From a virus (taxonomy: Duplodnaviria; Caudoviricetes): a DNA stretch of 59,379 bases. Below, in pieces: positions 17,620-34,068 of this stretch (position 1 is the stretch's first letter; the number at the start of each line of letters is the position of its first letter). Below the pieces are notes generated by a model. That model was not told where the DNA came from. It worked only from the letters and a program-made list of their open reading frames with translations, and ran no database searches. Where the stretch lies: the IMG/VR virus record IMGVR_UViG_3300020420_000015, positions 1-59,379 of that record. One strand, written 5' to 3'. Both the position numbers and the translations under genes were made by a program.

Positions 17620-17811
17620 TTATTCCTGTGAGTTTTCTAATTTTTGCATAATAACAGAATATCTACCGTGATGACAGTCTGAGAGGTCGCTTACAACAAA
17701 CCAACCTTTTTCTTCGTAAATTTTTATTTCGTGATGCCCAACATATCTGACAATAATTTTTTTAGTAATACTCCACGGGTCTTTTGTATTTTGGCTCGTC
17801 ATCCCACTCAT
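17620..17811 (-). CDS. Hypothetical protein
   Basis: Fills terL-portal gap; start uncertain. Confidence 0.45.
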   Translation of the reverse strand: MSGMTSQNTKDPWSITKKIIVRYVGHHEIKIYEEKGWFVVSDLSDCHHGRYSVIMQKLENSQE

Positions 17812-19270
17812 CCATAACGCTTCTTATCCATCCACCTTGACGGAATCTCAACAAAGCCTGAGTTGTGGAGTCAACCAAGTCATCATTTTCTCCCGTAGGG
17901 AATGCCGCACACTCTTCTATTACTTCTTCCGCCCATCTTGTATGTGGCGTCCACACAACGCCAGAGGCGAACAGGTCTGTTACGGCATTCACCCTAGCTA
18001 TTTTATCCTGCCCACGGGACGGTGTAAACTCAGTCACAGGTATTCCCATGGCCCTTAATTCAAAAATCAACGGGGAGCCTGCGGCCTTTGCTTCAACAAT
18101 CATCTGGTCAGGTTCAAACTCCCAGTATTTATCATAGGCGGCTCTTTTTAATTCTGGAAACTCTAGCTTTTCTTTATACGCATCCAGCAGAATTAAATTA
18201 GGAACGGTTTCCCCTTGGTCATTAGGGTGGTTAAATATACCCCATGTTGTACAAGCACTGTAGTCTGCCCGTTGTGTTTTTAAGAAGGCCGTATCCCAAC
18301 TTTGTATTATGGCCTCACACGGTGGCGGATTCTCATATTCCCACTCTTGCCACCATTCTCTTTTTATTAATGCACCCTCTTCAGCAGTTGGGTCTTGTTG
18401 ATATTGGGCTGACCATTTGGAAATCGGGAGTTCGGCCTTTAATGCCTCTAGCTGGTCTACAGGCCAAAACTCAGGCCAAAGCGGTTCACCGGACGGCATT
18501 ATTGCCGGAAGCTCAATTACTTCCCACTCATCCGCACCCTCTCTTTGCGTGGCTGACTTTACGATTTGACCAGTTAAATCTTTTACAGACCAACGGGTCA
18601 TAACAATAATTATTGCCCCTCCCGGCTGGAGTCTTTGTCTTGGTCCTGATGTATACCATTCGTATACCTTGTCGTAGACTTCCGTGTTGTAAGCCCCCAA
18701 TGCCGCCTCTTGTTCCGAATGGGGGTCATCAATAATGAGAACATCAGCACCTTTACCAGTGACCGCACCGCCAACACCAATCGCAAAGTAATCTCCTTTT
18801 TTGTTTGTGTTCCAACGACCAGCAGCCTTTGAATCTGCTGATAGAGATATTCCGGGAAACACCTCTTGAAAATCTTCTTGGTTGATTAGGTTTCTAACCT
18901 TACGACCAAAACCCACAGCAAGCTCTGCGGTGTGCGCTGTCTGAATAATTTTTTTCTCTGGGTATCTTCCTAAAAACCAAGCGGGAAATAAATATGATGC
19001 AAACTCTGACTTGGTATGTCGTGGGGGCATGTTAATAATCAGGCGCTTTAGCTCTCCATTTGCTACACGCTCAAATGCATTTGCCATGATTTGATGATGT
19101 CTTCCGTTTATAAATGCAGGCCATACCCTGTTTACAAACTGTAGGAAGTCACTTCTAGCGCCCTCACGAGACTTTGCTTCCTCAAGCTCGCTTAATAGCT
19201 CTAGTATCTCATTCTTCTTTTGCGGGGGAAGTTGAGCTATCTTTTGCTTTACTGCTGATAATGTACTCAT
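17762..19270 (-). CDS. terL: Terminase large subunit
   Basis: INMPPRHTKS (Walker A), LIIDDP (Walker B), MTRW, SWDTA and DDLVDS nuclease motifs. Confidence 0.95.
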   Translation of the reverse strand: MSTLSAVKQKIAQLPPQKKNEILELLSELEEAKSREGARSDFLQFVNRVWPAFINGRHHQIMANAFERVANGELKRLIINMPPRHTKSEFASYLFPAWFLGRYPEKKIIQTAHTAELAVGFGRKVRNLINQEDFQEVFPGISLSADSKAAGRWNTNKKGDYFAIGVGGAVTGKGADVLIIDDPHSEQEAALGAYNTEVYDKVYEWYTSGPRQRLQPGGAIIIVMTRWSVKDLTGQIVKSATQREGADEWEVIELPAIMPSGEPLWPEFWPVDQLEALKAELPISKWSAQYQQDPTAEEGALIKREWWQEWEYENPPPCEAIIQSWDTAFLKTQRADYSACTTWGIFNHPNDQGETVPNLILLDAYKEKLEFPELKRAAYDKYWEFEPDQMIVEAKAAGSPLIFELRAMGIPVTEFTPSRGQDKIARVNAVTDLFASGVVWTPHTRWAEEVIEECAAFPTGENDDLVDSTTQALLRFRQGGWIRSVMDEWDDEPKYKRPVEYY

Positions 19271-21389: not shown

Positions 21390-21860
21390 TCACTCGCCCA
21401 TCAGCAACGCCAAACGCCTCTGCAAATCGGCCTCAATCTCAGACGCTGACCTGTTTGAATTTTCATCTGTCACCACATTATCTGAAAACATACCTATGGA
21501 CCTTCCCAACTGGGTGAGGGCTGAGACCCGTGACGTATCACTGCCAGACACTGCCTCTTCCTTGAGCCTATCAGTCACCCATATTCTCAGGCGGTCCTCG
21601 TCTGTCCGCTTTCGTGCGGTGATTTCCTCAGTTATGGACTTTATCCTCTGTGCAACCTTGGTGTTCTCTGTTGCCAGCTTCGAGGCATTAGCCCATACAG
21701 TGCTTGGTTTTGTGCCTTCCTTAACATCGTAAGCCTGACGGTAGGCTTCTGTCAGTGTTTCACCTTGTGCAACCATCTGGCAAAAGTGTTCCTGCTTGGC
21801 TGTAAGTTTATCACCTGCATCTGTCACTATTGATAGGTGAGGGTGTTTATCTTTTGGCAT
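21390..21860 (-). CDS. terS: Terminase small subunit
   Basis: LTAKQEHFC..VA.G.T..EAYRQAY...ASKL...V..RI...AL..LGR.IGMF. Confidence 0.8.
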   Translation of the reverse strand: MPKDKHPHLSIVTDAGDKLTAKQEHFCQMVAQGETLTEAYRQAYDVKEGTKPSTVWANASKLATENTKVAQRIKSITEEITARKRTDEDRLRIWVTDRLKEEAVSGSDTSRVSALTQLGRSIGMFSDNVVTDENSNRSASEIEADLQRRLALLMGE

Positions 21861-22396
21861 GTTCTATTCCCTTTGTTCTGCCACCATGCGCTATCGCTTG
21901 GTCGGGCTTTCACATTCGTACTATGGAACAAATTATACCAGACCCCATGCAGTTGACGCTACCCATATGCCTTTTAAAGGCGATTTAAAGCCCCGTGAGT
22001 GCCTATCTCTATTTTTGCTCATAATCATACACGGGTATGTCGAGAAACGCCTGTACGGGCAAATAAGGTATTTTGAGCATAAAAATTCGCAGTTTCCCGT
22101 ACAATAATTTGGGGCCATTAAACGTCTATAAATTAAATAAAGAAAATAACTCAAAAGACTTGAATAATACTCAGAATAGTGTATTTAGAGGGTATATTCT
22201 TTTTTTTCAAATTTTGGAGGCCATCGCTACACTTACCGGACACGCCCACGGGGGCAGGGGCTAGCAACCCCGACCATACTGGACCACCACCTATTTACCG
22301 CTTCGATAGCGTCCGGCTTATGCGCAAAATGGGGGTGTAGACTGAGGCAGACATGTTTTGCTGTAACGTATCGGTTTAGAGTACGCCTTGCTTATA

Positions 22397-22449
22397 TCCT
22401 GTCGCTGGCATTGGTAGCCAGTTATGAAGAGACACCAAACGAAACAGGA
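22397..22449 (+). ncRNA. Candidate type III hammerhead ribozyme with variant core
   Basis: Stem III TCCTGT/ACAGGA, GTC site (C22403), stem I GCTGGC/GCCAGT, core TATGAAGA (canonical CTGANGA), 1-bp stem II, GAAA; loop I TTGGT complementary to loop II ACCAA. Confidence 0.6.
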
Positions 22450-22457
22450 GACGTTTT

Positions 22458-22631
22458 ATGTATAAAGTAATAGCTGAAGCACACAATATGAGTGCAGATA
22501 GTACATGTAGAACACTGCAAGATGCTAAGAATGCTTGCGGTGTTATGCTTGAGAAGTTGGGTTATCAGAAAAAAGATATCCACATCATCACGCCTGAAGG
22601 CAAAAAATTATACCTCGTTCCTCAAAAATAG
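22458..22631 (+). CDS. 57-aa early protein (missing from ORF track)
   Basis: AGGAG SD 7 nt upstream; MYKVIAEAHNMSAD...LYLVPQK. Confidence 0.7.
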   Translation: MYKVIAEAHNMSADSTCRTLQDAKNACGVMLEKLGYQKKDIHIITPEGKKLYLVPQK

Positions 22632-22640
22632 GAGAATACA

Positions 22641-22820
22641 TTGGTTGAATATTTCCACATTTATGTAAATGGCGGCCTCACATATGTGGGGCTGGTTTTA
22701 TCTCAGGCCGTACAGGTCATGGATAAATTAAAGGCTGATGGCAACAAGCCAGTTATGAAGTCTTATATGCTGGACCCTGTCGTGCTTGCGGCAATGTCAC
22801 AATCGTATGATGACAACTAA
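22641..22820 (+). CDS. 59-aa early protein, TTG start (missing from ORF track)
   Basis: AGGAG SD; MVEYFHIYVNGG...SQSYDDN; stop abuts the hammerhead at 22821. Confidence 0.65.
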   Translation: MVEYFHIYVNGGLTYVGLVLSQAVQVMDKLKADGNKPVMKSYMLDPVVLAAMSQSYDDN

Positions 22821-22885
22821 GCTACCTGATGATGGGCGCGTAGGACACGCCCGAAACACCGCGCCTTGCGGTGTCGTAGCGTCCT
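22821..22885 (+). ncRNA. Type I hammerhead ribozyme with pseudoknot; predicted cut 22875/22876
   Basis: GCTAC-CTGATGA-T-GGGCG[CGTAGGACA]CGCCC-GAA-ACACCGC[GCCTT]GCGGTGT-C-GTAGC; loop II AGGAC pairs with 3' GTCCT. Confidence 0.92.
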
Positions 22886-22915
22886 GCTACATTCCCTACA
22901 ATTTTGGAGACAAAA

Positions 22916-23587
22916 ATGCAAAACGTAACAAAAATTTTAGACATGGACACACTTAACACAATCAATGCCAATGAGAAAAAAATTGGCAAGCTTAACGGTA
23001 AGGCTTCCGCGATTACAGAAGAACGCCAGAAGCTAAAAATGACTAGCTACTGTCTGCTAGTGTCCGGCATGGCAGGGGCTAAGTTGGATAAAGGTAATTT
23101 TAAGTCTGCCGACAGGACCAACCTGAAGGGTGATTTAATGGACGCTGGCGGCCTGACAGATAGCATGGCCGAAAAGTACATCAAAAATGTCGCTGGTGCT
23201 AAAAATAAGCTTAAGGACCACGGCATTAACTCAGATAACATCACACCAGCTGGTGTTGCTGAAATCTTCGAGGACCAAGGTATTACCTCAGAAGCCAAGC
23301 TTATAAAGTTAATCTCTGGTGACAGTGCAAAGTCTAAGGTAGAGCAATTAGTTGACAAGGTTGCTGGCAAGCGTTCGCGCAAGAAAGATAAAGACGGCAA
23401 CAGTGTAGACGGTGATGCTTGGTTGGGTGGTTTGACAGATGAAGATTTATCTGAATTCCACAACAAACTGGCAGATGCTTTAAGGCTTCGCGGTGAAATA
23501 AAGAAAGCCTCTCAGGCGGCTGGTGATAAGGCTCAGGCTGAGATTGAACAAGTCAATGCAATGTGTGAGCAATTAGGCGCGGCATAG
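22916..23587 (+). CDS. Hypothetical helical early protein bracketed by two hammerheads
   Basis: GGAG SD before ATG 22916 (in frame with track ORF 22904); no recognisable domain. Confidence 0.8.
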   Translation: MQNVTKILDMDTLNTINANEKKIGKLNGKASAITEERQKLKMTSYCLLVSGMAGAKLDKGNFKSADRTNLKGDLMDAGGLTDSMAEKYIKNVAGAKNKLKDHGINSDNITPAGVAEIFEDQGITSEAKLIKLISGDSAKSKVEQLVDKVAGKRSRKKDKDGNSVDGDAWLGGLTDEDLSEFHNKLADALRLRGEIKKASQAAGDKAQAEIEQVNAMCEQLGAA

Positions 23588-23649
23588 CTACCTGACGAGC
23601 CAGCTTAGGACACTGGCGAAACTACCCCACGGGGTAGTCGTAGCGTCCT
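23587..23649 (+). ncRNA. Type I hammerhead ribozyme with pseudoknot; predicted cut 23639/23640
   Basis: GCTAC-CTGACGA-GCCAG[CTTAGGACA]CTGGC-GAA-ACTACCC[CACG]GGGTAGT-C-GTAGC; canonical core; loop II AGGAC pairs with 3' GTCCT. Confidence 0.95.
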
Positions 23650-23678
23650 GCTACATTCAACAACTTATGGAGAAAGTC

Positions 23679-23888
23679 ATGAAAACTTTTGTTCATTTTG
23701 TCGGTATGAGGACTGATGCTGAATACTTAGCCGCAGTCAGAGTTTACGGCAAACCTGATTTCATCCATCTGTATCATGACCGCAGAATGTATGGGGATAT
23801 TGATGCAGATAGGGATATTGTGGTGCTTGGTTCAAAAGGCAGGGATTTACCCTGTGAATATTCAGACCAAGACCATGAGAGACATTAA
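23679..23888 (+). CDS. Small early protein
   Basis: GGAG SD; VHFVG.R...Y..AVRVYG.PDFIH..HD.R. Confidence 0.75.
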   Translation: MKTFVHFVGMRTDAEYLAAVRVYGKPDFIHLYHDRRMYGDIDADRDIVVLGSKGRDLPCEYSDQDHERH

Positions 23889-23910
23889 CAAAAGCATGGG
23901 AGATTTTTAC

Positions 23911-24156
23911 ATGCAGAAACATAGAAGAGACCTACTGTCAGGGTTTTATGGCAGATTTTTCACTGGCTTTTTTACAAAGCTAGACGGTACTGAACGGCCT
24001 GTCTGGGGTGTCATTAAGAATGACCCCAACGTGCCGGACCACTTGTGTGTCGTTTATGACATGCGGTTGAAGCAGTACAGGCGTTTCAATATTGAACTGC
24101 CTTTTAATATTCGTTCAGGTAAAGACTTTATCTGTGCGGCTCATACCAACGCATAA
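23911..24156 (+). CDS. Small SH3/Sm-like (WYL_2/DUF2693-like) protein
   Basis: FF...FTK.DGTER...G...VVYD....YRRF; GGGAG SD before ATG 23911. Confidence 0.55.
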   Translation: MQKHRRDLLSGFYGRFFTGFFTKLDGTERPVWGVIKNDPNVPDHLCVVYDMRLKQYRRFNIELPFNIRSGKDFICAAHTNA

Positions 24157-24168
24157 CGGGAGAAAAAA

Positions 24169-25215
24169 ATGCGTATATCTCAAACTGTTCCTATAATTCA
24201 GAAGGCTATAGAAAGCCAGCTTAATTTTCGTATTTCAAACGGTGGGCGTGATGCTCAACGGCTTATCCCATACTTGCAGGGCAAGGCAGGGCTAGGCAAA
24301 ACCACCTCAATAATCAGCGTATGTGAGGCCAATGATAACTGGTCTTATTTCATTTTATCGCTGGCCCAGTTTGATGCTGGTGAACTTATGGGCGTTATTG
24401 CGATGGACGGTGATAATGCTAAACGTCTGAAGCCACATTGGCTGGTGCATGTTGAACAGCTAGCATCCGATAGTGATGTGGTGGTTCTGTTCTGCGATGA
24501 ATTGGCCCAAGCCCCCGTGGCGAATATGAACGTGGCCCGTCAGTTAATTAACGAGTTACGATGTGGTGATTTTATGTTGCCGGATAATGTCGTTATCGTT
24601 GCGGCTGGCAATCGTGTATCGGACAGGGCTGGGGCAAACAATATCCCAACACATATGAAAGACTGCCTGATGTTTTTGGACGTTGAGGCAGATTTAGATG
24701 ACGCTGTTGGGTATTTGTCAAGCAAAGGTATAAGCCCCGTCATTACTGGGTTTATGCGGTTCCGGCCTGAGTTGCTTAACAAGGTGGACCGTGACGCAGA
24801 CGCTAATCCATCACCCCGTTCTTATGAGAGACTTGATACAGTGCTTTCATGGGGCTTGCCAGAACCTGTTGAAAAAGAGGCAGTTGCTGGCATTTTGGGC
24901 AGGGGTGTATGTGCTGAGTTTTACGGTTACAAGCCTATATTCGACAGTGCCATCACTGTTGATGAGGTGCTTGCTAATCCTACATCAGCACCCGTGCCGG
25001 AAGAACCAGCAGTCTGCTACGCTGTAACATCTGCACTGGCCCACGCCATGACAGATAAAAATGTCGGGGCCATTACCCAGTATCTTGCCCGTTTTGTGCA
25101 TAAAGAATTTTATGTGCTGGCAATGAAAGATGCTTTCAAGCGTACACCTTCACTGAAACAAACACCCGAATTTAGGGCGTTTCTATTAGAGCATGGCGCA
25201 GAACTCATGCTCTAA
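24169..25215 (+). CDS. MoxR-like AAA+ ATPase
   Basis: GKAGLGKT (Walker A), VLFCDE (Walker B), AAGNR, SPRS. Confidence 0.88.
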   Translation: MRISQTVPIIQKAIESQLNFRISNGGRDAQRLIPYLQGKAGLGKTTSIISVCEANDNWSYFILSLAQFDAGELMGVIAMDGDNAKRLKPHWLVHVEQLASDSDVVVLFCDELAQAPVANMNVARQLINELRCGDFMLPDNVVIVAAGNRVSDRAGANNIPTHMKDCLMFLDVEADLDDAVGYLSSKGISPVITGFMRFRPELLNKVDRDADANPSPRSYERLDTVLSWGLPEPVEKEAVAGILGRGVCAEFYGYKPIFDSAITVDEVLANPTSAPVPEEPAVCYAVTSALAHAMTDKNVGAITQYLARFVHKEFYVLAMKDAFKRTPSLKQTPEFRAFLLEHGAELML

Positions 25216-25277
25216 GACATGGGGGCAGGCATGGTCCTGCCCCAATTCATACCATAGTACAAATCGGAGACACAGAT

Positions 25278-26432
25278 ATGGATGCAAATACCAAAATTTC
25301 ACGGGCCAAGACACGGCTCTTATTGGACCAGCCTTTCTGGGGTACGTTCACAATGGGTACGCCATTCTATGCTGATGACAAGGTGGACACTGCTTGCACC
25401 AACGGTCAACACATTAAATGGAACCCGTCTTTTGTTGATACCTTAGAGCCAACCAATACTATTTTCTTGGTTGCTCACGAAATAGGCCACATAGTCTTTC
25501 AGCATTGTAACCCCATTAAAGAAATCGATGGCAAGCCTGTGGACCCTGAGGTTCACAATATGGCACTGGATTATGTGCTTAATGCTATTCTCATAGATGG
25601 CAATGTAGGTGAAATGCCGGAAGGTGGTTTATACGAGCCTAGATATCACGGCTGGCCTTGGATTAAAGTTTACCGTGAATTAATTGCAATGGATAAAGAT
25701 GAACGCCCAAAGTCTCAGCCTTGGGGTGGCAATGTCGGCAATCCTGAGGACGATAACGGTAAGCCCTTGCAGGGCAGTCAGCTTGAACAGCACAACATGG
25801 ATATCGAAAGGCGTGTGTTCATGGCGGCAGAGGCCGCTAAGTCTGCTGGTAAATTACCAGCTGGTATTGATGACCTCGTCACAAAAATGAGACGTTCACG
25901 GGTAGATTGGCGTGATGTCTTTAATCGGTTTATCGGTGGTGAACAGCCGGACGATTACACTTGGCGCAGACCACAGAAAAGAATGTGGTTCCAGCATGGC
26001 GTGTACATGCCTTCAGTAGATAAGGTTGGTGTCGGGGATATTGTCGTTGCTGTAGATAGTTCAGGCTCAACTGGCGGACATCATCGGGAATATTTCTTTG
26101 GTGTTCTTAATCAGGTCATAGAAGACCACAATCCAACTTCTGTTACAATCATTACTTGTGATGCTGAGGTGCAAACAGTCAGGCGTTACGAGCAGGGTGA
26201 CATTGTAGAAGACATGGACGTTAAGGGTGATGGTGGCACGAGAGTAGAACCAGTGTTCAGATATGTCAGTGAAGAAAACATTAAGTGCAATGCTCTTGTT
26301 TATCTCACAGACATGGGCATCTGGGATTTTCCAGACAATAAGCCTGATTACCCCGTTCTGTGGGTATCAACTGACCCCGACTGTGCGGACGCACCTTTTG
26401 GGGAAACAACACGCATACAGGTGGCGGCATAA
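25278..26432 (+). CDS. Metallopeptidase-like plus vWA domain protein (DUF2201 family)
   Basis: TACTNG, AHEIGH zincin motif, VDSSGS MIDAS, GGT, YLTD. Confidence 0.85.
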   Translation: MDANTKISRAKTRLLLDQPFWGTFTMGTPFYADDKVDTACTNGQHIKWNPSFVDTLEPTNTIFLVAHEIGHIVFQHCNPIKEIDGKPVDPEVHNMALDYVLNAILIDGNVGEMPEGGLYEPRYHGWPWIKVYRELIAMDKDERPKSQPWGGNVGNPEDDNGKPLQGSQLEQHNMDIERRVFMAAEAAKSAGKLPAGIDDLVTKMRRSRVDWRDVFNRFIGGEQPDDYTWRRPQKRMWFQHGVYMPSVDKVGVGDIVVAVDSSGSTGGHHREYFFGVLNQVIEDHNPTSVTIITCDAEVQTVRRYEQGDIVEDMDVKGDGGTRVEPVFRYVSEENIKCNALVYLTDMGIWDFPDNKPDYPVLWVSTDPDCADAPFGETTRIQVAA

Positions 26433-26466
26433 TGCCGCTACCTACCTTCAATAACAGGAGACAAAA

Positions 26467-27300
26467 ATGAAAGATGAAATTAGAGATAAGAGTGTCGCAC
26501 AATATAAATACTTGAAATTTTGTTTGCGGCAAATCCGGCTCACAATGGATAATCACAGGGAAATGTGTGACATTAAATTGTTAGCTGATGTAATAAAAGG
26601 CGGTAAATATGATTGGCAAAATGGCGGTGTACTGACCCGTGATGAGCGCAAAGAATTGCAATCTGAGTTTGATAGAAAGGCAGGGCAATATTGCGCTTTT
26701 GAAAAGACGGTTGCTATATACATCAGTCAACTAGCCGACAGTGTAAGTTCAATTAGAAGAAGCTTCAAGGCTCATCAGACATACAATCCTATCAAGCAAG
26801 TCAAAAAAACCTCATTAGATAGGGCCAGAGAAGTGCTTGACAATGGATTTAAAAGAACCAGCACCGCTGTAGTCTGTAATGGGCCGGAAGCTGAACAGTT
26901 GGAAATAGAAGGCGATACTGATTACAGCAGGGTCAACTATGTAAACATACCTGTCCACTGGGTCAGTTCAGTATATAACAAGGGCTTGGGGCTAGTGCAT
27001 TCACCCAAGGGATTGAGGTTTATTGCGAGAGCAATTCCGGCAGATATCCCGTGGGTAAATGATGAAAACATGAATTGCTACAAGGCCGTCAGCATAGGCA
27101 GTCACGATAAAAAATGTTTTGTAGAAGAGGGCTGGATAGTGACGCATCAGGCATCTGTAATTAATGATGTTCAGCCCCTAGTCCATCCGGCAGACAGGAA
27201 GACTGTAACGCCCCATGCCTTCAATGAAAATCTACAGAAGGCTGTTAAGCTTATGAAGTCACGCACCTATAAACACCTTACAAAAATGCTGGACAAATAA
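26467..27300 (+). CDS. Hypothetical protein
   Basis: 277-aa ORF with AGGAG SD. Confidence 0.75.
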   Translation: MKDEIRDKSVAQYKYLKFCLRQIRLTMDNHREMCDIKLLADVIKGGKYDWQNGGVLTRDERKELQSEFDRKAGQYCAFEKTVAIYISQLADSVSSIRRSFKAHQTYNPIKQVKKTSLDRAREVLDNGFKRTSTAVVCNGPEAEQLEIEGDTDYSRVNYVNIPVHWVSSVYNKGLGLVHSPKGLRFIARAIPADIPWVNDENMNCYKAVSIGSHDKKCFVEEGWIVTHQASVINDVQPLVHPADRKTVTPHAFNENLQKAVKLMKSRTYKHLTKMLDK

Positions 27301-27301
27301 A

Positions 27302-27688
27302 ATGATTAAGCACGGCACTGTAAGGGCTGATGGAAAAATGTTTTGGGGATACCACAAGCATGCCAAAAATGGCGAGGAGTGGTGTACCCCATCTGCATTT
27401 ATCAGGCGTAAATCAAAATCTAGAGCGAGGCAATGGATGAACCGCAGACGCAGAACCCATTGGCTTAATAAATATAAACAGCACCACGGGTGTTGTTATT
27501 GTGGTTATGATGATAACGGTATAGCCTTGCAGTTTCATCATACAGGTGACAAAGCATTTAATGTTTCTGACGCACGTTCATACTCACTAAGAAAACTTTT
27601 TAGTGAAATTAGAAAGTGTTTAGTTATCTGCTCTAATTGTCACGCAATCGAAACAACCAGACTACAACAGGCAAGAGGTAAATTATGA
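27302..27688 (+). CDS. HNH endonuclease-like protein
   Basis: C..CGY...ALQFHH...EIRKC..ICSNCH. Confidence 0.75.
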   Translation: MIKHGTVRADGKMFWGYHKHAKNGEEWCTPSAFIRRKSKSRARQWMNRRRRTHWLNKYKQHHGCCYCGYDDNGIALQFHHTGDKAFNVSDARSYSLRKLFSEIRKCLVICSNCHAIETTRLQQARGKL

Positions 27689-27993
27689 CTAAGGATAATA
27701 AAATTTGTACTACCGTACAAAATAAAGTTAATTGCATCGGCCAAACACAACAGGAAATCAATGATGCAAATCATGTGGTAACGATTATCTGGGGTGTGGA
27801 GGGCATTAAAAAAGAGACATTTGGTTTTAGTGACATTGTGTCTTATCATGCCTTTTTATTGGGGGTCGATGCCGCATGCGGATGGATGAAATATGAGGTA
27901 GAGGCAGAGCCTTATTATCATGCCGAACCTTTTGATGCTGACCATCCCAAAACACTAAACTTGACTATGGAGGATGAGCCTAATGATGATTAG
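27685..27993 (+). CDS. Hypothetical protein
   Basis: Coupled ORF; TIIWG...F.LGVDAACGW. Confidence 0.65.
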   Translation: MTKDNKICTTVQNKVNCIGQTQQEINDANHVVTIIWGVEGIKKETFGFSDIVSYHAFLLGVDAACGWMKYEVEAEPYYHAEPFDADHPKTLNLTMEDEPNDD

Positions 27994-28231
27994 CTGGCAC
28001 ACGGCCCCAAGGCATAAATATAAGGGGTATGTTTACAAACCTGACGTAGATGAATACGATGATGGAAACAGAAAGGCTTCTCATAACGTATACGCTGAGG
28101 GTAAAGAAAACTTTATGCATACATTGCCAGAGTTTTATATTCACGCATCACCGTATAGTTTTTTAAGCTTCGAGCAGTTTAAAAATCACGTTGATAAACA
28201 TCTAACAGATAATCGGGAGTTTAGACCATGA
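27974..28231 (+). CDS. Hypothetical protein
   Basis: Coupled ORF in early operon; start may be 27983. Confidence 0.65.
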   Translation: MSLMMISWHTAPRHKYKGYVYKPDVDEYDDGNRKASHNVYAEGKENFMHTLPEFYIHASPYSFLSFEQFKNHVDKHLTDNREFRP

Positions 28232-28395
28232 GAGATTATTTTCTATTTTGGCTAGGCGTTCTGTGCTGTACGTCTGGCATGTCATACATTGAACAGCCAG
28301 AAAATAGTGTACTGGTAGGCATAGCTATTATATACTCAGGCATGGCGGCCTTTGTCTGGGCTGGTGTTAATATGGTAAAAAGGGGTGACGAATGA
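28228..28395 (+). CDS. 55-aa membrane protein (missing from ORF track)
   Basis: MRDYFLFWLGVLCC...VLVGIAIIYSGMAAFVWAGV; ATGA overlaps at both ends. Confidence 0.65.
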   Translation: MRDYFLFWLGVLCCTSGMSYIEQPENSVLVGIAIIYSGMAAFVWAGVNMVKRGDE

Positions 28396-28595
28396 ATATA
28401 GAAAAAGCTAAACAAGCTTATCTTGATGAATGCCATAAAATAGGCAAAGTTCCTCAGCATGTCACCTACATGACCTATGACCAGTACAGTGAAAAATACA
28501 CACTGGGCAATGAAAGTGATGGTGATTTTGTGGATATGTACCCGAACGGGTCAGTCACAGCTATGCACTGGAATTTAAAAAATAACAACAGTTAG
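28392..28595 (+). CDS. Hypothetical protein
   Basis: Last coupled ORF of early operon. Confidence 0.6.
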   Translation: MNIEKAKQAYLDECHKIGKVPQHVTYMTYDQYSEKYTLGNESDGDFVDMYPNGSVTAMHWNLKNNNS

Positions 28596-28691
28596 GCTAG
28601 CGGGGGTTTGTTGACAGTGTTGAGGAACGCTGGAAAAAATATTCTGTTGGCCCTGCTAGTCTGACATCTCCACGACAGAATATATCCTCAT

Positions 28692-28733
28692 AGGCGGTGA
28701 GCGTTCTAGACACGCGCTCACCGCCTTTTTTTT
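28692..28733 (+). terminator. Intrinsic terminator of early operon
   Basis: AGGCGGTGAGCG / CGCTCACCGCCT 12-bp stem then T8. Confidence 0.88.
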
Positions 28734-28867
28734 GCTTTTTTGTACTAGGGTATGAGTTTTATGCGAGCCGTGCCCGGGGCAGGCCAGAATATTTTTTTTT
28801 CGTGCTATAGTACAAATCAACTACTATCACGCATTTCGTGGGGAGTTCTTTCTTCGTGGGGAGTTCT

Positions 28868-28908
28868 AAAAAATAGGGGGCTGACGGCATGCAGTCCATC
28901 AACCCCCT
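28868..28908 (-). terminator. Intrinsic terminator of leftward replication operon
   Basis: Minus strand AGGGGGTTGA...TCAGCCCCCT followed by ATTTTTT. Confidence 0.65.
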
Positions 28909-28955
28909 TAGTCGGGAGGACTTGTAGTGTTTGGAGATTATCTCACATAAAATAA

Positions 28956-29258
28956 TTAGTCAACATCAAAGCACTCTACAGATGCCGCCATATACCCACA
29001 CTTGTCTAAATAACTATCCCAATGATGAGGTGTTTCCATTAGCCTTGCAGTTTTAACTAAATCCATCATCAGTGCGTGGTCTATCGGGGTTATTTTTTCA
29101 TCATCCTTTAGTTTGTCTTTGAGGTAAACGGTCCAGAAATTAGCTATCCTAGCCCAGTTTTCTTCTGGTGAGCCATAATGCGCTCCCCTTGCATCTATTA
29201 CATCTCCTGCCTCAGACAGTAATAATTTTCCTTTTCTTGTTGCAGCAGGTTTATCCAT
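28956..29258 (-). CDS. DUF6378-like protein
   Basis: RGAHYG.PEENW.RIA.FW...M.LVK.AR...H.DSYLD..GY; start moved to MDKPA. Confidence 0.75.
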   Translation of the reverse strand: MDKPAATRKGKLLLSEAGDVIDARGAHYGSPEENWARIANFWTVYLKDKLKDDEKITPIDHALMMDLVKTARLMETPHHWDSYLDKCGYMAASVECFDVD

Positions 29259-29292
29259 ATTTTTGTATCCTAGTATAAATTTCGTGGGGAGT

Positions 29293-31056
29293 TCAAAACG
29301 GAACGTCATCAAAGTTACGCACTGCCGGAACTATCGGAAAGTTATCTTCCTGTTCCTCTGAATAAGTAGACGTTACCTGATTAAAAAATAAATCGGCAAC
29401 ACCCTGCTTGCCTACCCAACTAAATCTGCATTTCCATATGTGAACTTCGCTAAGTGATGAGCCTACTGGGTCGGGCCTATGCACTGATAATCCGATATCT
29501 GCTTTAGCAAACCATGCGGCACTGCCTGATATGTCATAACCTTTTGGTGCTGGAACTTTGCCGTCCTGCCCACGGAGCATTTTTGTTGGGTGGGCAACAA
29601 ACCAGAGATGTATTCCATGAGACTGAGCGAACACCCTCAAGGTGGTTAGCATCTCACTAATCCAATCTGTTTCAGATATATCGCCATTCTTTTGTATATA
29701 ATTGTATGGGTCAATGATTGCGCCCCTGATACCGTGACGCATAACTGCTATCTTCAATCTATCTACAATATCGTGAATGGTCGCCATAGAACCATCATTC
29801 TGATACAGAAAGCTAAAATGACTTTGCACGAAATCCTTCCCTCTATCTAACTCATGTTTGGTTAGACGAGGTGTAACACCGTCAAAGAATGGTTTTCTAA
29901 AATGCTTGCTAATTAATTTAGCTATGTGTAGGCGTGGCTCATTTTCAAAAGAGCAAACAGCAAACTTCCAACCTCGCTCTTCTGCTAGGTTCACCATTAT
30001 CTGGTCAATAAACTCTGATTTGCCTGATGAAGGATGGCCTGTAACAACGGTCAACTGACCCTCTACAATGGTATAAAGTTCATCCACATTTGGATAGCCT
30101 GTCGATTCCCCTCTACCCATTCCCTTGTCGTAAATCTCGTCCACTTGCTCGTAGAAATGTTTTGCATCATATAGTCCTGCTACAGGATATGGCCTTGATT
30201 TGTAGATAACTCTATCTACTTCTTTCTTGCCTTTTTTAACCAAGACATCGTTTGCGTCTTTACATCCATCAGGCCACTCTACAATCCAACATTTATCTTT
30301 CCCTATTCTCCTTGCAATCTCCTCGCCCATAGCCTGACCAGCACCATCGTCATCTGTGCAGATGATTATTTTTTTTGCGGCATCTATTATGTTCTTTGCA
30401 TCCCACAAGAACTTAAACTTGTTATCCTCTTTTGGGTCTATCTTGCCATCTATAACCTTCATGACGGCCCCATTAGGAACGGATACTGCGTTCTCATATC
30501 CGCATTGCACCAGAGAAATAGCGTCCATTTCCCCTTCACAAATATACAAGTCCTCTCCGATAACTACATTTTCAATATTAAAAAATGATGCTGGTGAGCC
30601 GTTACAAGAAAATCCCTTATCCTCTACTGACCGTATCTTTGCGGCATACATCCTGCCTTGATTTGTATAGGGAAAGACTACACAGTCTGACTGCTTTTGC
30701 AGTGCTGATATGAAATGTTTCCCTGATTTTAAACCTGTCTCACGAGCCGTTTCTTCTGATATCCCACGCTTCTCTAGCCAAGATAAAGTTGCTTCATTCA
30801 AGTCATCCCAATCATGTTTTACGGCAAGTGTCACTTTATTCCTCCTAACATTTGGCATCTGCCGCTCTTGCAAAGAAACGCCACCAGATGCTTCGCAGTG
30901 CCAGCAATTATACACAATGCTGTCACCTTCGACTTTTATAGACAGGGTTTTCTGACCCTTTTTTTTGCGCTGATGAGAGCAAAATGGGCATACAATTTTA
31001 TGTTGCCCACTACCTCTCCGGAGGGCTTCCCCTCGGATTACTACTTCAGTTTCCAT
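29293..31056 (-). CDS. Twinkle/T7 gp4-like primase-helicase
   Basis: CPFC...CWHC Zn-binding domain, ICEGEMD and DDDGAG TOPRIM, KDAND, TGHPSSGKS Walker A, IIDP, VAHP, ISGSA. Confidence 0.93.
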   Translation of the reverse strand: METEVVIRGEALRRGSGQHKIVCPFCSHQRKKKGQKTLSIKVEGDSIVYNCWHCEASGGVSLQERQMPNVRRNKVTLAVKHDWDDLNEATLSWLEKRGISEETARETGLKSGKHFISALQKQSDCVVFPYTNQGRMYAAKIRSVEDKGFSCNGSPASFFNIENVVIGEDLYICEGEMDAISLVQCGYENAVSVPNGAVMKVIDGKIDPKEDNKFKFLWDAKNIIDAAKKIIICTDDDGAGQAMGEEIARRIGKDKCWIVEWPDGCKDANDVLVKKGKKEVDRVIYKSRPYPVAGLYDAKHFYEQVDEIYDKGMGRGESTGYPNVDELYTIVEGQLTVVTGHPSSGKSEFIDQIMVNLAEERGWKFAVCSFENEPRLHIAKLISKHFRKPFFDGVTPRLTKHELDRGKDFVQSHFSFLYQNDGSMATIHDIVDRLKIAVMRHGIRGAIIDPYNYIQKNGDISETDWISEMLTTLRVFAQSHGIHLWFVAHPTKMLRGQDGKVPAPKGYDISGSAAWFAKADIGLSVHRPDPVGSSLSEVHIWKCRFSWVGKQGVADLFFNQVTSTYSEEQEDNFPIVPAVRNFDDVPF

Positions 31057-31080
31057 TTAGTTTTCTCCACGACTAGCATC

Positions 31081-31109
31081 ACGATATTGCCATGCCAATG
31101 AAGTGTCAA
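31081..31109 (-). promoter_or_regulatory. Sigma70-like promoter for primase-helicase
   Basis: Minus strand TTGACA-N17-TATCGT. Confidence 0.55.
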
Positions 31110-31138
31110 TAGATAATTTGAGTCAGTGGTGGGTAGGG

Positions 31139-31200
31139 TTATAATATTTATAGTTATATATATTTATATATTTATATATAATTTGTATTAGAGTATTAAT
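31139..31200. other. AT-rich (TA-repeat) tract, candidate unwinding element
   Basis: ~60 nt almost entirely A/T upstream of primase-helicase. Confidence 0.5.
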
Positions 31201-31504
31201 ATTTATCTATAAGGTCTTTAAGCTTTCTTCCTTCGTAACGGGCAATCGCTGATTTAGAATTTAGGATGTGTAAAAAATTACCCCTCATCTTTGACGAACA
31301 TATATCGGCTAAATCACACACCGTTTGGAAGTCTTCTGTTTCTAGCCACTGCTCAACTGCAAACCTGTCTTTTTCGTCATTCAGGTAGGCATCTGAGATA
31401 GCTTGGGATATCACCGCTCTCCAAAGCCGACACTCTGATAATTGTTCTTGGGTTTTCCCTATCAAGCCCCCAGTAAATATTCTTCTGCTTAACTTGCCTG
31501 TCAT
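31196..31504 (-). CDS. Hypothetical protein
   Basis: LWRAVISQAISDA...DF.TVCDLA. Confidence 0.7.
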   Translation of the reverse strand: MTGKLSRRIFTGGLIGKTQEQLSECRLWRAVISQAISDAYLNDEKDRFAVEQWLETEDFQTVCDLADICSSKMRGNFLHILNSKSAIARYEGRKLKDLIDKY

Positions 31505-31772
31505 TTTTGTAAATAGTTCCTTGCATTAAATCTAAAATCAGGCTCTCGTCTAAGTCTGGTCTGCGTGAGGAGTAATAAATTAGCATCTCAACCTTTACAT
31601 CGTTATCAAAAAGCTCGTCAAGGGTTTGACACTGGGCAAGAAATTTAACTGCATAGTTTCTGGCCTTATCCGATTTAATGGACGCAGGACGCCCTCTTAT
31701 CATAACTATTTTTCTGCTATTGGCCTTAGAGGCTGGCTCACCCAGTATTTGGAATAAATGTTGTTTCACCAT
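31377..31772 (-). CDS. rusA: RusA-like Holliday junction resolvase
   Basis: GEPASKANS...RRPDLD...ILD...IYKNDRQV...D.ENPR; start moved to MVKQH. Confidence 0.82.
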   Translation of the reverse strand: MVKQHLFQILGEPASKANSRKIVMIRGRPASIKSDKARNYAVKFLAQCQTLDELFDNDVKVEMLIYYSSRRPDLDESLILDLMQGTIYKNDRQVKQKNIYWGLDRENPRTIIRVSALESGDIPSYLRCLPE

Positions 31773-31785
31773 GTTATTTTTCCTA

Positions 31786-31815
31786 TTGACCTTTTTTTGA
31801 GCCTTTGATAATAAT
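31786..31815 (+). promoter_or_regulatory. Sigma70-like promoter for recombination operon
   Basis: TTGACC-N17/18-TAATAA/AATAAT in the divergent gap. Confidence 0.45.
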
Positions 31816-31836
31816 GATTTTCGGAAGGACATTATC

Positions 31837-32712
31837 ATGCAGATTACTAATAATTATAATTTACCTCAGTCTTTTGTTGATTTTGCCAGAAATGACAAAT
31901 ATAGCAAGGGAAATGCCGATATTTCGGTTACCACACTGATAGACAGCCCTAGAGTGCGTCTTATGCGTGACCATCACCACGAGGACCGCGTAGTGGATGT
32001 CGTGGATAACGTCTGGGCATTGTTTGGCACTGCCGTACACCATGTTTTAGAAAGTTCTACCCCTACAGAGGATGTTGTTTTAGAAGAGCGTCTGTTCTGT
32101 GATGTTGATGGGTGGGTTCTTTCGGGTGCTATCGACCATCAATCTATTTACGGGAATACAGTTGAAATAACAGATTATAAAGTTACCAGTGTCTGGTCTG
32201 TAATTCATGGCAAGATAGATTGGGAGCGTCAACTAAATGTATATGCTTACCTTGTTCAAAAGAATAAAGGAAAGAGAGTAACTAAGCTTTCTATTTGTGC
32301 CGTGCTAAGGGATTGGAATAAGCGTGACGCACAGACTAAGCCAGATTATCCACAAGCACCCGTGGTAATAGTCGACATTCCTAAATGGACTGAAATGGAA
32401 AGAATTAATTATATTCATGGGCGCATCAGCGCACATCAAGAAGCACAGATTATTTATGATATGGAAGCTTCTTTCCCGACTTGTTCAGATGAGGACAGAT
32501 GGAAACGTGATGACGCTTGGGCTGTAAAGAAAAAAGGATTAAAGAGGGCTATGCGTGTGTTCTCAACACATGATGAAGCCAATAGTTTTGCGACAGAACA
32601 AAGCGTTCCTGTCGAAATAGAACATCGTATTGGAGAGCCGATACGCTGTAAAGGCAACTATTGTGGAGTTGCTGATTTTTGCTCACAGTTTAAAAAGGAG
32701 ATTAGTGAATGA
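31837..32712 (+). CDS. PD-(D/E)XK (Cas4/RecB-like) exonuclease
   Basis: GTAVH, LEERL, GAID, DYKVT, QLNVY, terminal Cys cluster. Confidence 0.85.
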   Translation: MQITNNYNLPQSFVDFARNDKYSKGNADISVTTLIDSPRVRLMRDHHHEDRVVDVVDNVWALFGTAVHHVLESSTPTEDVVLEERLFCDVDGWVLSGAIDHQSIYGNTVEITDYKVTSVWSVIHGKIDWERQLNVYAYLVQKNKGKRVTKLSICAVLRDWNKRDAQTKPDYPQAPVVIVDIPKWTEMERINYIHGRISAHQEAQIIYDMEASFPTCSDEDRWKRDDAWAVKKKGLKRAMRVFSTHDEANSFATEQSVPVEIEHRIGEPIRCKGNYCGVADFCSQFKKEISE

Positions 32713-33350
32713 GCAAAGTATGGGAGACTTTATCTGGCATTGATGTGTCAGAACATACCGAAAAGAAAGGTAAATTAGTTTACCTGTCTTGGGCTTGGGC
32801 TTGGGCGATAGTGAAAAAACATTATCCCGATGCAATATTTAAAAAACATTTGTACGATGGTCCAAATGGCCCCCGTCCTTATATGTTTGATGAATCTGGG
32901 TACGCCTTTACTTGTGTAACTGTCACTATTGGTGACCAATCACAAACAGAGGTTTTGCCTGTTTTAAATCACTCAAACAATGCTGTTCAAAATCCAAACA
33001 GCTTTCAAGTAAACACATCTCTTCAAAGGTGTCTTGCCAAATGCTGTGCAATGCACGGCTTAGGTCATTACATTTATGCTGGTGAGGACTTGCCGGAAGG
33101 AACAGAGCCTACGTTTAGCATTGAAAGCACTGACGGTAAGTTAGAAGAAGTTGAAGGCCTCAAGAGAGTGGCCGCTGTTTTTTCAACATTCATACCTGAG
33201 TGCCAGAACATAGAAGACTTGCGTTCATTTTGGTCGATTAATAAACAGGCAAGAGAGGCCTTAGAAAAGGGTGACAAGAAGCTGTACCAATCAGTTCTTG
33301 ATGAGTTTATGCAACACAGTAAGACGTTAGAAGAAGGGAAAGCGGCATGA
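32709..33350 (+). CDS. Sak/DUF1071-like single-strand annealing protein
   Basis: DVSEH.EKKG...YLSWAWAW...LPVL...NTSLQRCLAK..AMHGLG.YIYAGEDLP. Confidence 0.85.
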   Translation: MSKVWETLSGIDVSEHTEKKGKLVYLSWAWAWAIVKKHYPDAIFKKHLYDGPNGPRPYMFDESGYAFTCVTVTIGDQSQTEVLPVLNHSNNAVQNPNSFQVNTSLQRCLAKCCAMHGLGHYIYAGEDLPEGTEPTFSIESTDGKLEEVEGLKRVAAVFSTFIPECQNIEDLRSFWSINKQAREALEKGDKKLYQSVLDEFMQHSKTLEEGKAA

Positions 33351-33643
33351 CTGAATATCCACCATCAGGTGCGTTGTTTACAAATCAACGCAAACAAAAG
33401 GAATCGCAACCAGACTATACAGGCACACTTGAGTTGTCTGATGAAGTTGTGAATGACCTTGTTGAACAAATTAGCAGGGGTGTAACAAAGCCAAAACTCA
33501 GTTTGGCTGGTTGGAAAAAAGTCGCTCAAAAAAGCGGCGCTACATTCTTATCTTTGCGTGGCAACAAGTTTGAGGAAAAGCTAAATAACGCCAGTAATCA
33601 GGCTCCTGTTAGCACTCAATCTAATGAACCAATTCCGTTCTAA
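33347..33643 (+). CDS. Putative ssDNA-binding protein (DUF736-like)
   Basis: SGALF.N..K...QPDYTG...LAGW...FLSL; C-terminal IPF. Confidence 0.65.
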   Translation: MTEYPPSGALFTNQRKQKESQPDYTGTLELSDEVVNDLVEQISRGVTKPKLSLAGWKKVAQKSGATFLSLRGNKFEEKLNNASNQAPVSTQSNEPIPF

Positions 33644-33905
33644 AAGAGAGCGGTCACAGAAATACCTAAAGACTTTGCGTGGCAAGCCATGTTTAGTTTG
33701 TGGGTATGGCGGAGAGGCACATCATATCATGTTTGCGGAACCAAATGCCATGAGCATGAAGGTGGGAGACAACTGGTGTGTTCCTCTCTGCCACTCTTGT
33801 CACATGAAACTACATGCTTTTGGTGATGAGAGAACTTGGTGGGATTTACAAGGTATTGACCCACTAAAATGGGCTAAATGTAATTGGGAGAAGTTCAATG
33901 GATGA
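33624..33905 (+). CDS. DUF968/HNH-like Zn protein
   Basis: PCLVCG...AHH...K..D...VPLCHSCH. Confidence 0.7.
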   Translation: MNQFRSKRERSQKYLKTLRGKPCLVCGYGGEAHHIMFAEPNAMSMKVGDNWCVPLCHSCHMKLHAFGDERTWWDLQGIDPLKWAKCNWEKFNG

Positions 33906-34068
33906 AAGCCTTTGCATAGCTTATGAGTTGAAGCATCAGATTGAAAATTTACCTGATGAGGTTAAACGAAGCAAAATTGTAGATGGAGCGGAGACTGCTC
34001 ACGATATGCTGTCAAAGGTGGCAATCGTTGTTCATGCCCTTGAAGCACATGAGAAGGATATAAAATGA
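33898..34068 (+). CDS. 56-aa protein (missing from ORF track)
   Basis: GGAG SD; MDESLCIAYELK...HEKDIK; overlaps both neighbours. Confidence 0.65.
   Translation: MDESLCIAYELKHQIENLPDEVKRSKIVDGAETAHDMLSKVAIVVHALEAHEKDIK

Follow-up and report, generated by a model that had tools for sequence, protein, structure and literature searches.

Between the gene for the small terminase subunit (TerS) and a rightward operon, the 59,379-nt viral record analysed here (IMG/VR IMGVR_UViG_3300020420_000015, Caudoviricetes; hereafter the window) contains a sequence that reads as a hammerhead ribozyme lacking the core cytosine C3. C3 is regarded as invariant in hammerheads; it forms a pair with G8, and few positions of the core tolerate change so poorly. 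The locus raises two questions: whether the element is a hammerhead and, if it is, whether such a core still cuts. The explanation we favour, at a probability of roughly 0.55, is that a motif of hammerhead lineage (22397-22449) at the 3' end of a leader RNA most likely cuts itself, and that this cleavage removes the leader together with the strand that pairs with the Shine-Dalgarno (SD) sequence of the first gene.

The helices follow the type III order: 5' strand of stem III, H17, stem I hairpin, core, stem II hairpin, GAA and 3' strand of stem III (Table 1). An N-U-H cleavage triplet and the A15.1-U16.1 pair are present in the window and in all 31 rows of an alignment of unique homologues, in columns that the search patterns fixed. 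The G10.1-C11.1 pair is followed by G12-A13-A14 (the GAAA columns were likewise fixed by the patterns), and loops I and II form a five-pair pseudoknot that includes a covarying pair. The departure lies in the core. Where the consensus has C3-U4-G5-A6-N7-G8-A9, the window has TATGAAGA, that is U-A-U-G-A-A-G-A, in which a U and an A stand between U2.1 and U4 in place of C3 and the core is otherwise intact from U4 to A9. A preliminary description of the locus, as a variant type III hammerhead whose stem III hides the SD of the first early gene, agrees with the sequence in every base-level statement. Its 'first' holds, as the 57-codon ORF opens the rightward operon; its 'early' is inferred from gene order only.

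Table 1. Features of the hammerhead locus and its surroundings in the window (SD, Shine-Dalgarno sequence; HH, hammerhead).
Feature	Position	Strand	Remarks
Small terminase subunit gene	21390..21860	-	Divergent neighbour; synteny anchor
Conserved structured leader RNA	22193..22396	+	Directly 5' of the HH; 5' end inferred only, from a -10-like motif
Stem III 5' strand (16.6-16.1), anti-SD UCCUGU	22397..22402	+	TCCTGT in DNA; pairs with ACAGGA, 22444-22449
C17, predicted scissile bond C22403/G22404	22403	+	Position inferred from HH consensus; last base of GUC, 22401-22403
Stem I hairpin GCUGGC/GCCAGU	22404..22422	+	Six pairs, 22404-22409 (GCTGGC) with 22417-22422 (GCCAGT), G1.1-U2.1 wobble first; loop I AUUGGUA
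Loop I pseudoknot strand UUGGU	22411..22415	+	TTGGT, complementary to ACCAA, 22434-22438
Variant core strand UAUGAAGA	22423..22430	+	UA for C3, then U4 G5 A6 A7 G8 A9
Stem II, single pair G22431-C22440	22431..22440	+	Loop II ACACCAAA with pseudoknot strand 22434-22438
G12 A13 A14, then stem III 3' strand ACAGGA	22441..22449	+	GAAA, 22441-22444; A15.1 is A22444, paired with U22402
SD of first ORF, AGGAG	22446..22450	+	Initial four bases inside stem III
First ORF of rightward operon, 57 aa	22458..22631	+	ATG 8 nt past stem III; no family match; other small ORFs replace it in relatives
Second HH, type I	22820..22890	+	CUGAUGA, extra U before stem II; predicted cut C22875/G22876
Third HH, type I	23587..23654	+	Full consensus CUGACGA; predicted cut C23639/G23640

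Folding of the window alone says little. The minimum-free-energy structure of 22390-22465 consists of exactly stems III and I as tabulated (-13.5 kcal/mol), and the segment is no more stable than its shuffled versions (z = -0.14; 87 of 200 shuffles equally stable), so that thermodynamics provides no signal; in longer constructs the predicted fold of the region varies. Nor does Rfam detect the element: there were no hammerhead matches in the whole window at gathering thresholds and none at E<=10 over 21800-22800, and the element falls below the gathering score. A relaxed type III descriptor with 6/6-bp stems matched once in the window, whereas first-order Markov random sequences of window length gave a mean of 0.017 matches (1 of 60 sequences matched). 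Scans found no tRNA, and promoters and terminators no more than expected by chance.

The comparative evidence is stronger. Positions 22397-22452 form a conserved island among related phage contigs, 100% identical over 55 nt between diverged flanks in one (L003) and about 80% identical in others (L008-L012). A covariance model of the element (R1) scores 72 bits here, against 10.1 bits for the next-best match in the window, and finds one strong match in each of four related near-complete genomes. Wherever a TerS match was found, at 42-97% identity, the element separates TerS from the ATPase/VWA operon. (The ATG of orf227 is at 22916 and the synteny query started at 22917; the matches are therefore DNA homology in the wrong frame, which still shows synteny.) At the same syntenic site, four orthologues (L022, L024, L041 and L042) have the full consensus CUGACGA and four others (L023, L030, L035 and L038) have CUGAAUGA, a core of the CUGA-A-UGA kind. 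One consensus-core orthologue, L006, aligns end to end with Rfam Hammerhead_3 at only 27.9 bits, where gathering requires 48.5.

Among the 31 unique homologues, 93.0% of the 531 alignment cells are paired, compared with 86.8% after shuffling (0 of 500 shuffles reach 93.0%), and pairing drops to 30-43% in a control with the partners slid. One pseudoknot pair (alignment columns 22-64) is GC in 18 rows, CG in 8, UA in 3 and UG in 2, and never unpaired. At 1.1-2.1, 25 rows have GU, 5 have GC and 1 has AU. The G-U pairs of the structure are strand-specific, which argues for an RNA encoded on the plus strand. Stem III is CCUGU/ACAGG in 29 rows and swapped at three pairs in the remaining two (L045 and L052), and its sequence hardly varies, being more tightly conserved than base pairing alone would demand. 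The stem II G-C pair is present in every row. Because the search patterns imposed many of the alignment columns, including GUC and GAAA, invariance in those columns is not evidence. On these comparative sequence grounds the window element is a real type III RNA of hammerhead lineage with a non-canonical core, the class to which it had first been assigned.

The variant core proved to be the rule in this clade. In a scan that left the core free, UA-type variants occupied 21 of 29 loci, the full consensus 4, and a core with an extra A after A6 another 4. The search for this core in related phages that the preliminary description had called for was thus positive. Three identical loci that a pattern scan had added (L043, L044 and L046) have neither GUC nor the stems and were dropped as chance matches. 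Across the 15 unique variant rows of the scan with the core left free, U4, G5, A6, G8, A9 and G10.1 are each present 15 times, whereas N7 varies (A in 12, U in 3). The junction between stem I and the core contains fillers of 2 nt, 3 nt and even 18 nt among relatives, and in L033 a 16-nt hairpin is inserted there, which a tight canonical core could hardly accommodate. In the TerS tree, variant cores occur on either side of the deepest split, and the tree requires at least three switches between variant and non-variant cores. A C3-less core is the majority allele of a seawater phage clade and coexists with consensus alleles at an identical site. The clade holds a natural allelic series in one scaffold (consensus, A6a insertion, UA, UAU, UU and hairpin insertion), which allows a direct test of the purpose that the C3-G8 pair serves.

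We infer cleavage, its rate and its consequences for translation and stability as follows. In this phage and most of its clade, UA stands in place of C3, an insertion/substitution in the core that resembles in kind the one in the hammerhead of haloviruses HF1/HF2. The motif, with its one-pair stem II and loop I-loop II pseudoknot at the 3' end of an operon leader of about 210 nt, most likely retains self-cleavage at C22403/G22404; the consensus alleles found in sister phages probably cut faster. The first ORF's SD begins within the 3' strand of stem III. Cleavage would strip the structured leader along with the anti-SD strand UCCUGU; the remaining mRNA would begin with a 5'-OH and a cap formed by stem I and the pseudoknot, and its SD would be free.

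The overlap with the SD recurs in the homologues. An SD-like run is contiguous with stem III in 27 of the 31, the four exceptions being L045 and L052, in which it lies outside the stem, and L029 and L049, which have no nearby start; in several lineages stem III is lengthened to 7-12 pairs across the SD. The SD is predicted to be unpaired with a probability of 0.94 in the 3' product, compared with 0.25-0.81 across three constructs left uncleaved, with pseudoknots outside the model; being strongly construct-dependent, these modelled values are weak evidence. In engineered bacterial aptazymes, cleavage does release a masked SD, as the preliminary description had noted; in the devices that PMC5367253 describes (aptazymes and thermozymes), cleavage removes the SD-pairing strand as proposed here. 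Those devices are synthetic and gated by ligand or temperature, whereas the window element is known from sequence and shows no ligand-sensing domain. It would be a natural counterpart of such SD-unmasking switches. The preliminary interpretation, a cleavage-activated switch or delay timer, is partly supported overall.

Possible, though the less probable account, is that the element is a dead descendant of a hammerhead, kept as a 5'-UTR module in which a three-way junction and pseudoknot partly mask the SD (as a constitutive damper or a temperature- or factor-sensitive gate) or protect the mRNA, with the leader remaining attached. Loss of C3 leaves G8 without a Watson-Crick partner, and the mutational data in PMC3088659 and PMC9901934 class C3-less cores as inactive; in the pairwise scan reported in the latter, no combination of up to two changes rescued the CUGA turn, a G:C swap excepted. 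HHmeta, a saltern hammerhead with an insertion near C3, is described in PMC3088659 as almost inactive at 15 mM Mg2+ and as cleaving at about 0.13 per min at 300 mM; such Mg2+ levels are not expected here, because the nearest relatives found are seawater phages. The tolerance of the junction for 2-, 3- and 18-nt fillers and the long SD-covering stems of several lineages also fit a module of this kind. A purely structural role, however, leaves unexplained why U4, G5, A6, G8, A9, G12-A14, C17 and A15.1-U16.1 are fixed while N7 and the loops drift, with the caveat that positions beyond U4-G10.1 were fixed by the search patterns. Random decay would not yield the same UA allele across the deepest TerS split, and the halovirus variant, also without C3, appears to cleave in vivo by 5'-end mapping (PMC3088659). 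The same distribution, with the other catalytic positions invariant and N7 free, counts against the 'decayed ribozyme' that had been offered as an option from the outset.

The opposite possibility can be put tentatively: that the C3-less core (UA, UAU or UU before U4) is a competent alternative active site, aided by the pseudoknot, at ordinary intracellular Mg2+. In abundant marine phages it would then have been selected for cutting slowly or conditionally and thereby timing the translatability of the first gene, with the upstream leader perhaps influencing the cut. If true, a C3-less site whose cutting is influenced by a leader would be a natural regulated hammerhead.

A further explanation accepts cleavage and differs from self-cutting as an SD switch in purpose, not in chemistry. 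Here the ribozyme mainly makes the 3' end of the leader, releasing a non-coding RNA with a 2',3'-cyclic phosphate, and the SD overlap reflects compaction at the junction. The element does lie at the boundary between leader and mRNA, and in 23 of the 54 loci compared, some with TerS proteins only 43-59% identical, a leader (about 150-190 nt with compensatory changes) precedes it by 50-250 nt on the same strand; 9 of the leader's 20 predicted pairs show compensatory changes, and Rfam has no match to it (E<=10, 21800-22800). Downstream lie two type I hammerheads that do not contain the SD, so that masking of the SD is no general feature of these phages. We consider it unlikely that leader maturation is the main purpose, since blastn finds no leader in several hammerhead carriers (L019, L020, L022, L029, L041 and the L016/L026 group), and since the element keeps SD and stem III continuous in most rows, with a stem III conserved beyond the needs of pairing. 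A scan for the leader hairpin returned 19 loci, 10 of them new, without an R1 match and apparently unrelated, apart from a hairpin that L198, L206 and L207 have in common.

That the element is a chance likeness in intergenic DNA, or that it acts as DNA beside the terminase genes (in packaging, or as an origin or promoter), is very improbable: the unremarkable local fold, the missing Rfam match and the adjoining terS would fit it, but it is already contradicted by the conserved island, the orthologues with consensus cores and the covariation of pseudoknot and stem III, which are decisive, and further by the strand-specific G-U pairs, the descriptor expectation and the single strong covariance-model match per genome.

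The two downstream hammerheads sit upstream of the next genes, and their stems II and III covary. In the second, the tail consists of GUCCU, which pairs with AGGAC of loop II, followed by a GCUAC repeat; the third has the same tail. Over 22300-36000 and 22800-23700, the sole hammerhead-like Rfam match at E<=10 is Hammerhead_3 at 23571-23627 (17.6 bits, sub-threshold). The window's motifs all lie below the gathering score, and a scan at gathering thresholds would miss them. The preliminary description mentions neither the conserved upstream leader nor the two downstream hammerheads, and these suggest that the general role is the processing of transcripts; as judged from sequence, three hammerheads and an unclassified leader RNA would make relatives of pelagiphages a case of transcript processing by ribozymes. 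By TerL, the nearest isolates are four phages, three with a seawater record and one, DSL-LC04, from lake water. R1 finds nothing significant in these four GenBank phages (no match in HTVC027P, 023Pt_psg01 or HTVC023P; 12.7 bits, E 0.148, in DSL-LC04), blastn of 21800-23000 finds no match among GenBank phages, and the 57-aa ORF has no relatives in the viral contigs. A loose-pattern scan of genome contigs gave one chance-like match after filtering, among the at least 120 matches listed, and is uninformative on bacterial genomes or hosts.

Top-ranked literature matches include neither a UA-for-C3 core nor hammerheads in pelagiphage-like phages, and the word 'ribozyme' is absent from PMC9599517; Dataset S1 and Figures S6/S7, 5 and 6 of Perreault 2011 may contain similar variants. 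The only natural C3 exceptions of this kind that we found in print are three sequences from salterns, which were interpreted as adapted to extreme Mg2+. PMC3088659 describes saltern hammerheads with insertions near C3 and reports such variants from salterns only, a reported range, rather than a structural trait, that the window's nearest isolates do not share.

The closest precedent is the hammerhead of haloviruses HF1/HF2, which precedes the first early ORF by 13 nt and for which the mapped transcript 5' end is no more than 3 nt from the cleavage site (PMC3088659). In the HF2 record (AF222060.2, 10292-10359), the C3 column of the Rfam alignment is empty and u, g and u are inserted. Like the window element, it has extra bases beside stem I, lacks a C in the C3 column, forms a UGGU/ACCA-type pseudoknot involving loop I, and lies just upstream of the opening ORF of a polycistronic unit in a virus (ribozyme end 10359, CDS 10371). 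The bases differ, with UGU before UGACGA in HF2 and UA, UAU or UU before UGA-N-GA in the window clade. HF2 is a type II hammerhead with an open stem II of 4 bp, whereas the window element belongs to type III and has a stem II of one pair; HF2 passes Rfam gathering (41.1 against 37) and the window element does not; and HF2 comes from hypersaline archaeal viruses, the window's nearest isolates being mostly seawater phages. Unlike HF1/HF2 and HHmeta, the window variant predominates in a clade in which consensus alleles also occur, and it has the SD in stem III. The likeness to HHmeta rests on the text description in PMC3088659.

Other relatives resemble the window in part. A hammerhead with a one-bp stem II and a pseudoknot is reported in PMC3088659 to cleave faster than 1.2 per min. 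Pseudoknotted bacterial and phage hammerheads cluster around prophage genes (Perreault 2011; RF02276, RF00008), with several placed around one gene or a short block of genes, as here; they share the loop I-stem II pseudoknot and a stem II of down to one pair, with high activity. Their cores, as described there, are consensus almost without exception, from which the window's first element departs, and the window's three hammerheads are below Rfam gathering or unfound, unlike members of those families. The RNA mycovirus hammerheads described in PMC13725137 are likewise ribozymes of viral 5' UTRs whose cleavage enables translation; unlike the window element, they are eukaryotic, cap-independent and type I, and act without SD masking.

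The variant type III hammerhead occupies 22397–22449 on the plus strand, with a predicted scissile bond at C22403/G22404. All coordinates and pairings assigned to it in a preliminary description were correct when rechecked against the window sequence. Taken alone, the motif in the window carries little evidential weight. Shuffled sequences fold just as stably (z = −0.14), Rfam returned no match to the element even at E ≤ 10, and a random window is expected to hold 0.017 matches to a relaxed descriptor with 6/6-bp stems.

We put the probability that the element is a genuine hammerhead-lineage RNA at about 95%. For comparison, we retrieved twelve loci that encode a small-terminase (TerS) relative, and against these 22397–22452 forms an island of conservation: one locus (L003) is 100% identical over 55 nt with diverged flanks, and L008–L012 are ~80% identical to the window. 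At the same site, relatives L004, L010 and L012 read GUC, stem I, CUGACGA, G, loop, C, GAAA and stem III, which is the full hammerhead consensus and bears out the view of the window's motif as a type III hammerhead with a non-canonical core. Rfam Hammerhead_3 covers the copy in locus L006 end to end (27.9 bits versus a gathering score of 48.5).

An IMG/VR pattern scan with stems and GAAA fixed and the core left free yielded 29 loci, with the core CUGACGA in 4, CUGAAUGA in 4 and variant in 21 (UAUGAAGA in 9, UAUGAUGA in 4, UAUUGAAGA in 6 and UUUGAAGA in 2). The search for the core in related phages that had been proposed finds variant cores in these 21 of 29 loci. Two more scans, with the variant core fixed and stem III free, added L045 (viral collection) and 21 metagenome loci; stem III is wholly rewritten in L045 and L052 (GGGGGU/ACCCCC and GUGGGU/ACCCAC). 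In total, 31 unique element sequences were obtained. A covariance model built for the element (R1) found a single copy in the window (72 bits; runner-up 10.1 bits) and, in four related genomes that are nearly complete, one strong copy apiece. R1 found no copy in HTVC027P, and none of the remaining three closest GenBank phages gave a significant match.

Columns fixed by the search patterns (GUC, four stem I pairs, GAAA and, in the core-free scan, stem III) are uninformative in their invariance. The pseudoknot was free in all scans, the core in the core-free scan and stem III in the two variant-core scans. Across the 31 rows, 93.0% of the 531 cells are paired, compared with 86.8% in shuffles (0 of 500 as high) and 30–43% when partners were slid. 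One loop I–loop II pseudoknot pair is GC in 18 rows, CG in 8, UA in 3 and UG in 2, and is unpaired in none; three pairs of stem III show a swap of both partners in 2 of 31 rows, and the sole pair of stem II is G-C in 31/31. Among the 15 unique variant rows of the core-free scan, U4, G5, A6, G8, A9 and G10.1 are each invariant (15/15), N7 is A in 12 and U in 3, and loop and flank columns vary. Judged from sequence, the core is conserved as in a working hammerhead, C3 excepted. The gap between U2.1 and U4 spans 2 bases (UA, rarely UU), 3 (UAU) or, in L033, 18 including a hairpin. The 1.1–2.1 pair is G-U in 25/25 variant rows; the remaining rows have G-C (5) or A-U (1). The L033 element (7297–7358, minus strand), otherwise an intact variant hammerhead, has a 16-nt insert with a 5-bp hairpin precisely where stem I meets the core.

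At 59,379 bp, the window comprises an entire IMG/VR virus record, which is estimated to be complete. Its closest isolates by large terminase (52–58% amino acid identity) are 023Pt_psg01, DSL-LC04 and the Pelagibacter phages HTVC027P and HTVC023P. The element lies in a 600-bp divergent intergenic region between leftward packaging and structural genes and a rightward operon that starts at 22458 and runs from small ORFs to an ATPase (phrog_1297) and a DUF2201/VWA protein. In every compared locus with a TerS match (identities 42%–97%), the element is divergent from and upstream of TerS and heads the operon toward the ATPase and VWA genes. It also adjoins a large terminase of only 32–33% identity. 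In a TerS tree (27 rows with hits of ≥120 amino acids, near-identical duplicates merged), the deepest split has the variant core on either side, and at least 3 switches are required; consensus and A6a (extra A after A6) alleles are nested, and the window's group is sister to consensus-core phages.

Features of the window around the element
Feature	Position	Strand or direction	Remark
Large terminase	17762–19270	leftward	
Small terminase	21390–21860	leftward	
SU10-type portal		leftward	packaging/structural block
Conserved GC-rich structured leader RNA	22193–22396	+	directly upstream of hammerhead
Type I hammerhead	22820–22890	+	upstream of 223-aa ORF, true ATG 22916
Type I hammerhead	23587–23654	+	upstream of ORF starting at 23679

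The ORF directly after the element differs among close relatives; conservation is therefore stronger in the RNA element than in the gene behind it. In L051 (927–987 versus window 22393–22660), a near-identical relative without the 57-aa ORF, the hammerhead–Shine-Dalgarno (SD) module abuts an ORF homologous to the second of the window (which starts at 22641). The module may therefore serve as a gene-replacement boundary.

The overlap with the SD, as previously proposed for stem III, extends beyond the window: CAGG of stem III continues directly into GGAG, GGGAG, GGGGA or GGGA in 27 of 31 unique rows. Of these 27, 21 have ATG or GTG 3–12 nt past the end of stem III, three (L023, L031 and L067, classed by the script as 'SD after stem III') have a start codon at 10–12 nt, L053 is cut off, and the script found no start codon in L028 and L051. 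The SD lies behind stem III, not within it, in L045 and L052, and the start codon only 36–39 nt downstream in L029 and L049. A sixth stem III pair is present in 20/31 rows, and stem III reaches 7–12 pairs in L016, L019, L020, L022 and others. The bimolecular stem III duplex has a predicted energy of −8.5 kcal/mol, and the predicted probability that the SD is unpaired, computed without the pseudoknot, is 0.94 in the 3′ product versus 0.25–0.81 in uncleaved constructs. The same SD-freeing logic is used by engineered aptazymes (PMC5367253), in line with the likeness to engineered ON-switches drawn in the preliminary description.

Perreault et al. (2011; PMC3088659) describe prophage genes flanked by hammerhead clusters, a pseudoknot between loop I and stem II that ~40% of examples contain, a type II ribozyme that is active with a single pair in stem II, and natural core variants (U3-A8, A6C, a low-activity insertion after A6 and others). 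There, the saltern variant HHmeta is near-inactive at 15 mM Mg2+ and needs 300 mM to reach ~0.13 per min; in haloviruses HF1 and HF2, HHphage lies 13 nt ahead of the first-ORF start codon in an early polycistronic transcript, the mapped 5′ end of which is ≤3 nt from the cleavage site. Rfam Hammerhead_II matches the HF2 record with 41.1 bits, the C3 column being empty and u, g, u inserted; the HF2 core strand and the UAU allele of these phages are therefore alike in kind. When a type III hammerhead was scanned by pairwise mutation, no set of up to two changes rescued the CUGA turn, the G:C swap excepted (PMC9901934). Our literature search, which covered article text, returned among its top-ranked matches no paper on pelagiphage-type hammerheads or a UA-for-C3 core, and the word 'ribozyme' is absent from PMC9599517. 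The present element extends the range of C3-region variants beyond archaeal viruses of hypersaline habitats into seawater phages, where, unlike in the former, it is type III and fused to an SD; one locus carries both consensus and variant alleles.

Upstream, a GC-rich block (22196–22350) on the same strand is conserved in 23 of 54 loci compared. The leader shows compensatory changes at 9 of 20 predicted pairs (RNAalifold), an invariant GGGGCUAGCA-N-CCCC hairpin and a GACUGAGG box, some relatives have an additional inserted domain, and Rfam gave no match to it; it may be a new RNA class. A −10-like motif ~40 nt upstream of its conserved GGAGG suggests a transcript start near 22193.

The sequence comparisons establish the element's architecture, covariation, synteny, spread of alleles and overlap with the SD; we infer cleavage by the C3-less core, together with its rate and its effects on translation and stability, within a putative pathway. 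Transcription from ~22193 would include the leader, and the hammerhead would fold with its pseudoknot and cut after C22403. The 5′ product would take off the leader and the anti-SD strand, and the ribozyme body would stay on the mRNA, giving a structured 5′ end, a 5′-OH and an open SD; the next cistrons would then be separated by the two type I ribozymes. In vivo, the window allele is somewhat more likely than not to cleave itself, and a measurable gain in translation from cleavage is a tentative prediction, at slightly less than even odds.

Both type I hammerheads lie 20–30 nt ahead of an SD and ATG, and neither attains the Rfam gathering score. Their family (11–12 unique copies) shows covariation in stems II and III. 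An extra U separates A9 from stem II in the upstream copy, and the same holds for 7 of 11 unique copies. Both terminate in GUAGC-GUCCU-GCUAC, and loop II AGGAC is complementary to GUCCU 3′ of stem I; the tail belonged to the search pattern, so its conservation is no independent evidence. GCUAC after GUCCU could form a 5′-terminal hairpin on the 3′ product.

Three IMG/VR contigs of 50–148 kb (L198, L206 and L207) share a 17-nt GGGGCUAGCACCCCCGA hairpin. It is embedded in a different non-coding stretch, long, GC-rich and apparently structured, whose sequence two large phage contigs have in common without a difference. Elsewhere in the window, a 2980-aa ORF (35760–44702, minus strand), the last ~900 residues of which match PHROG families of 2800–3900-aa uncharacterised proteins, may encode a giant virion or ejection protein.
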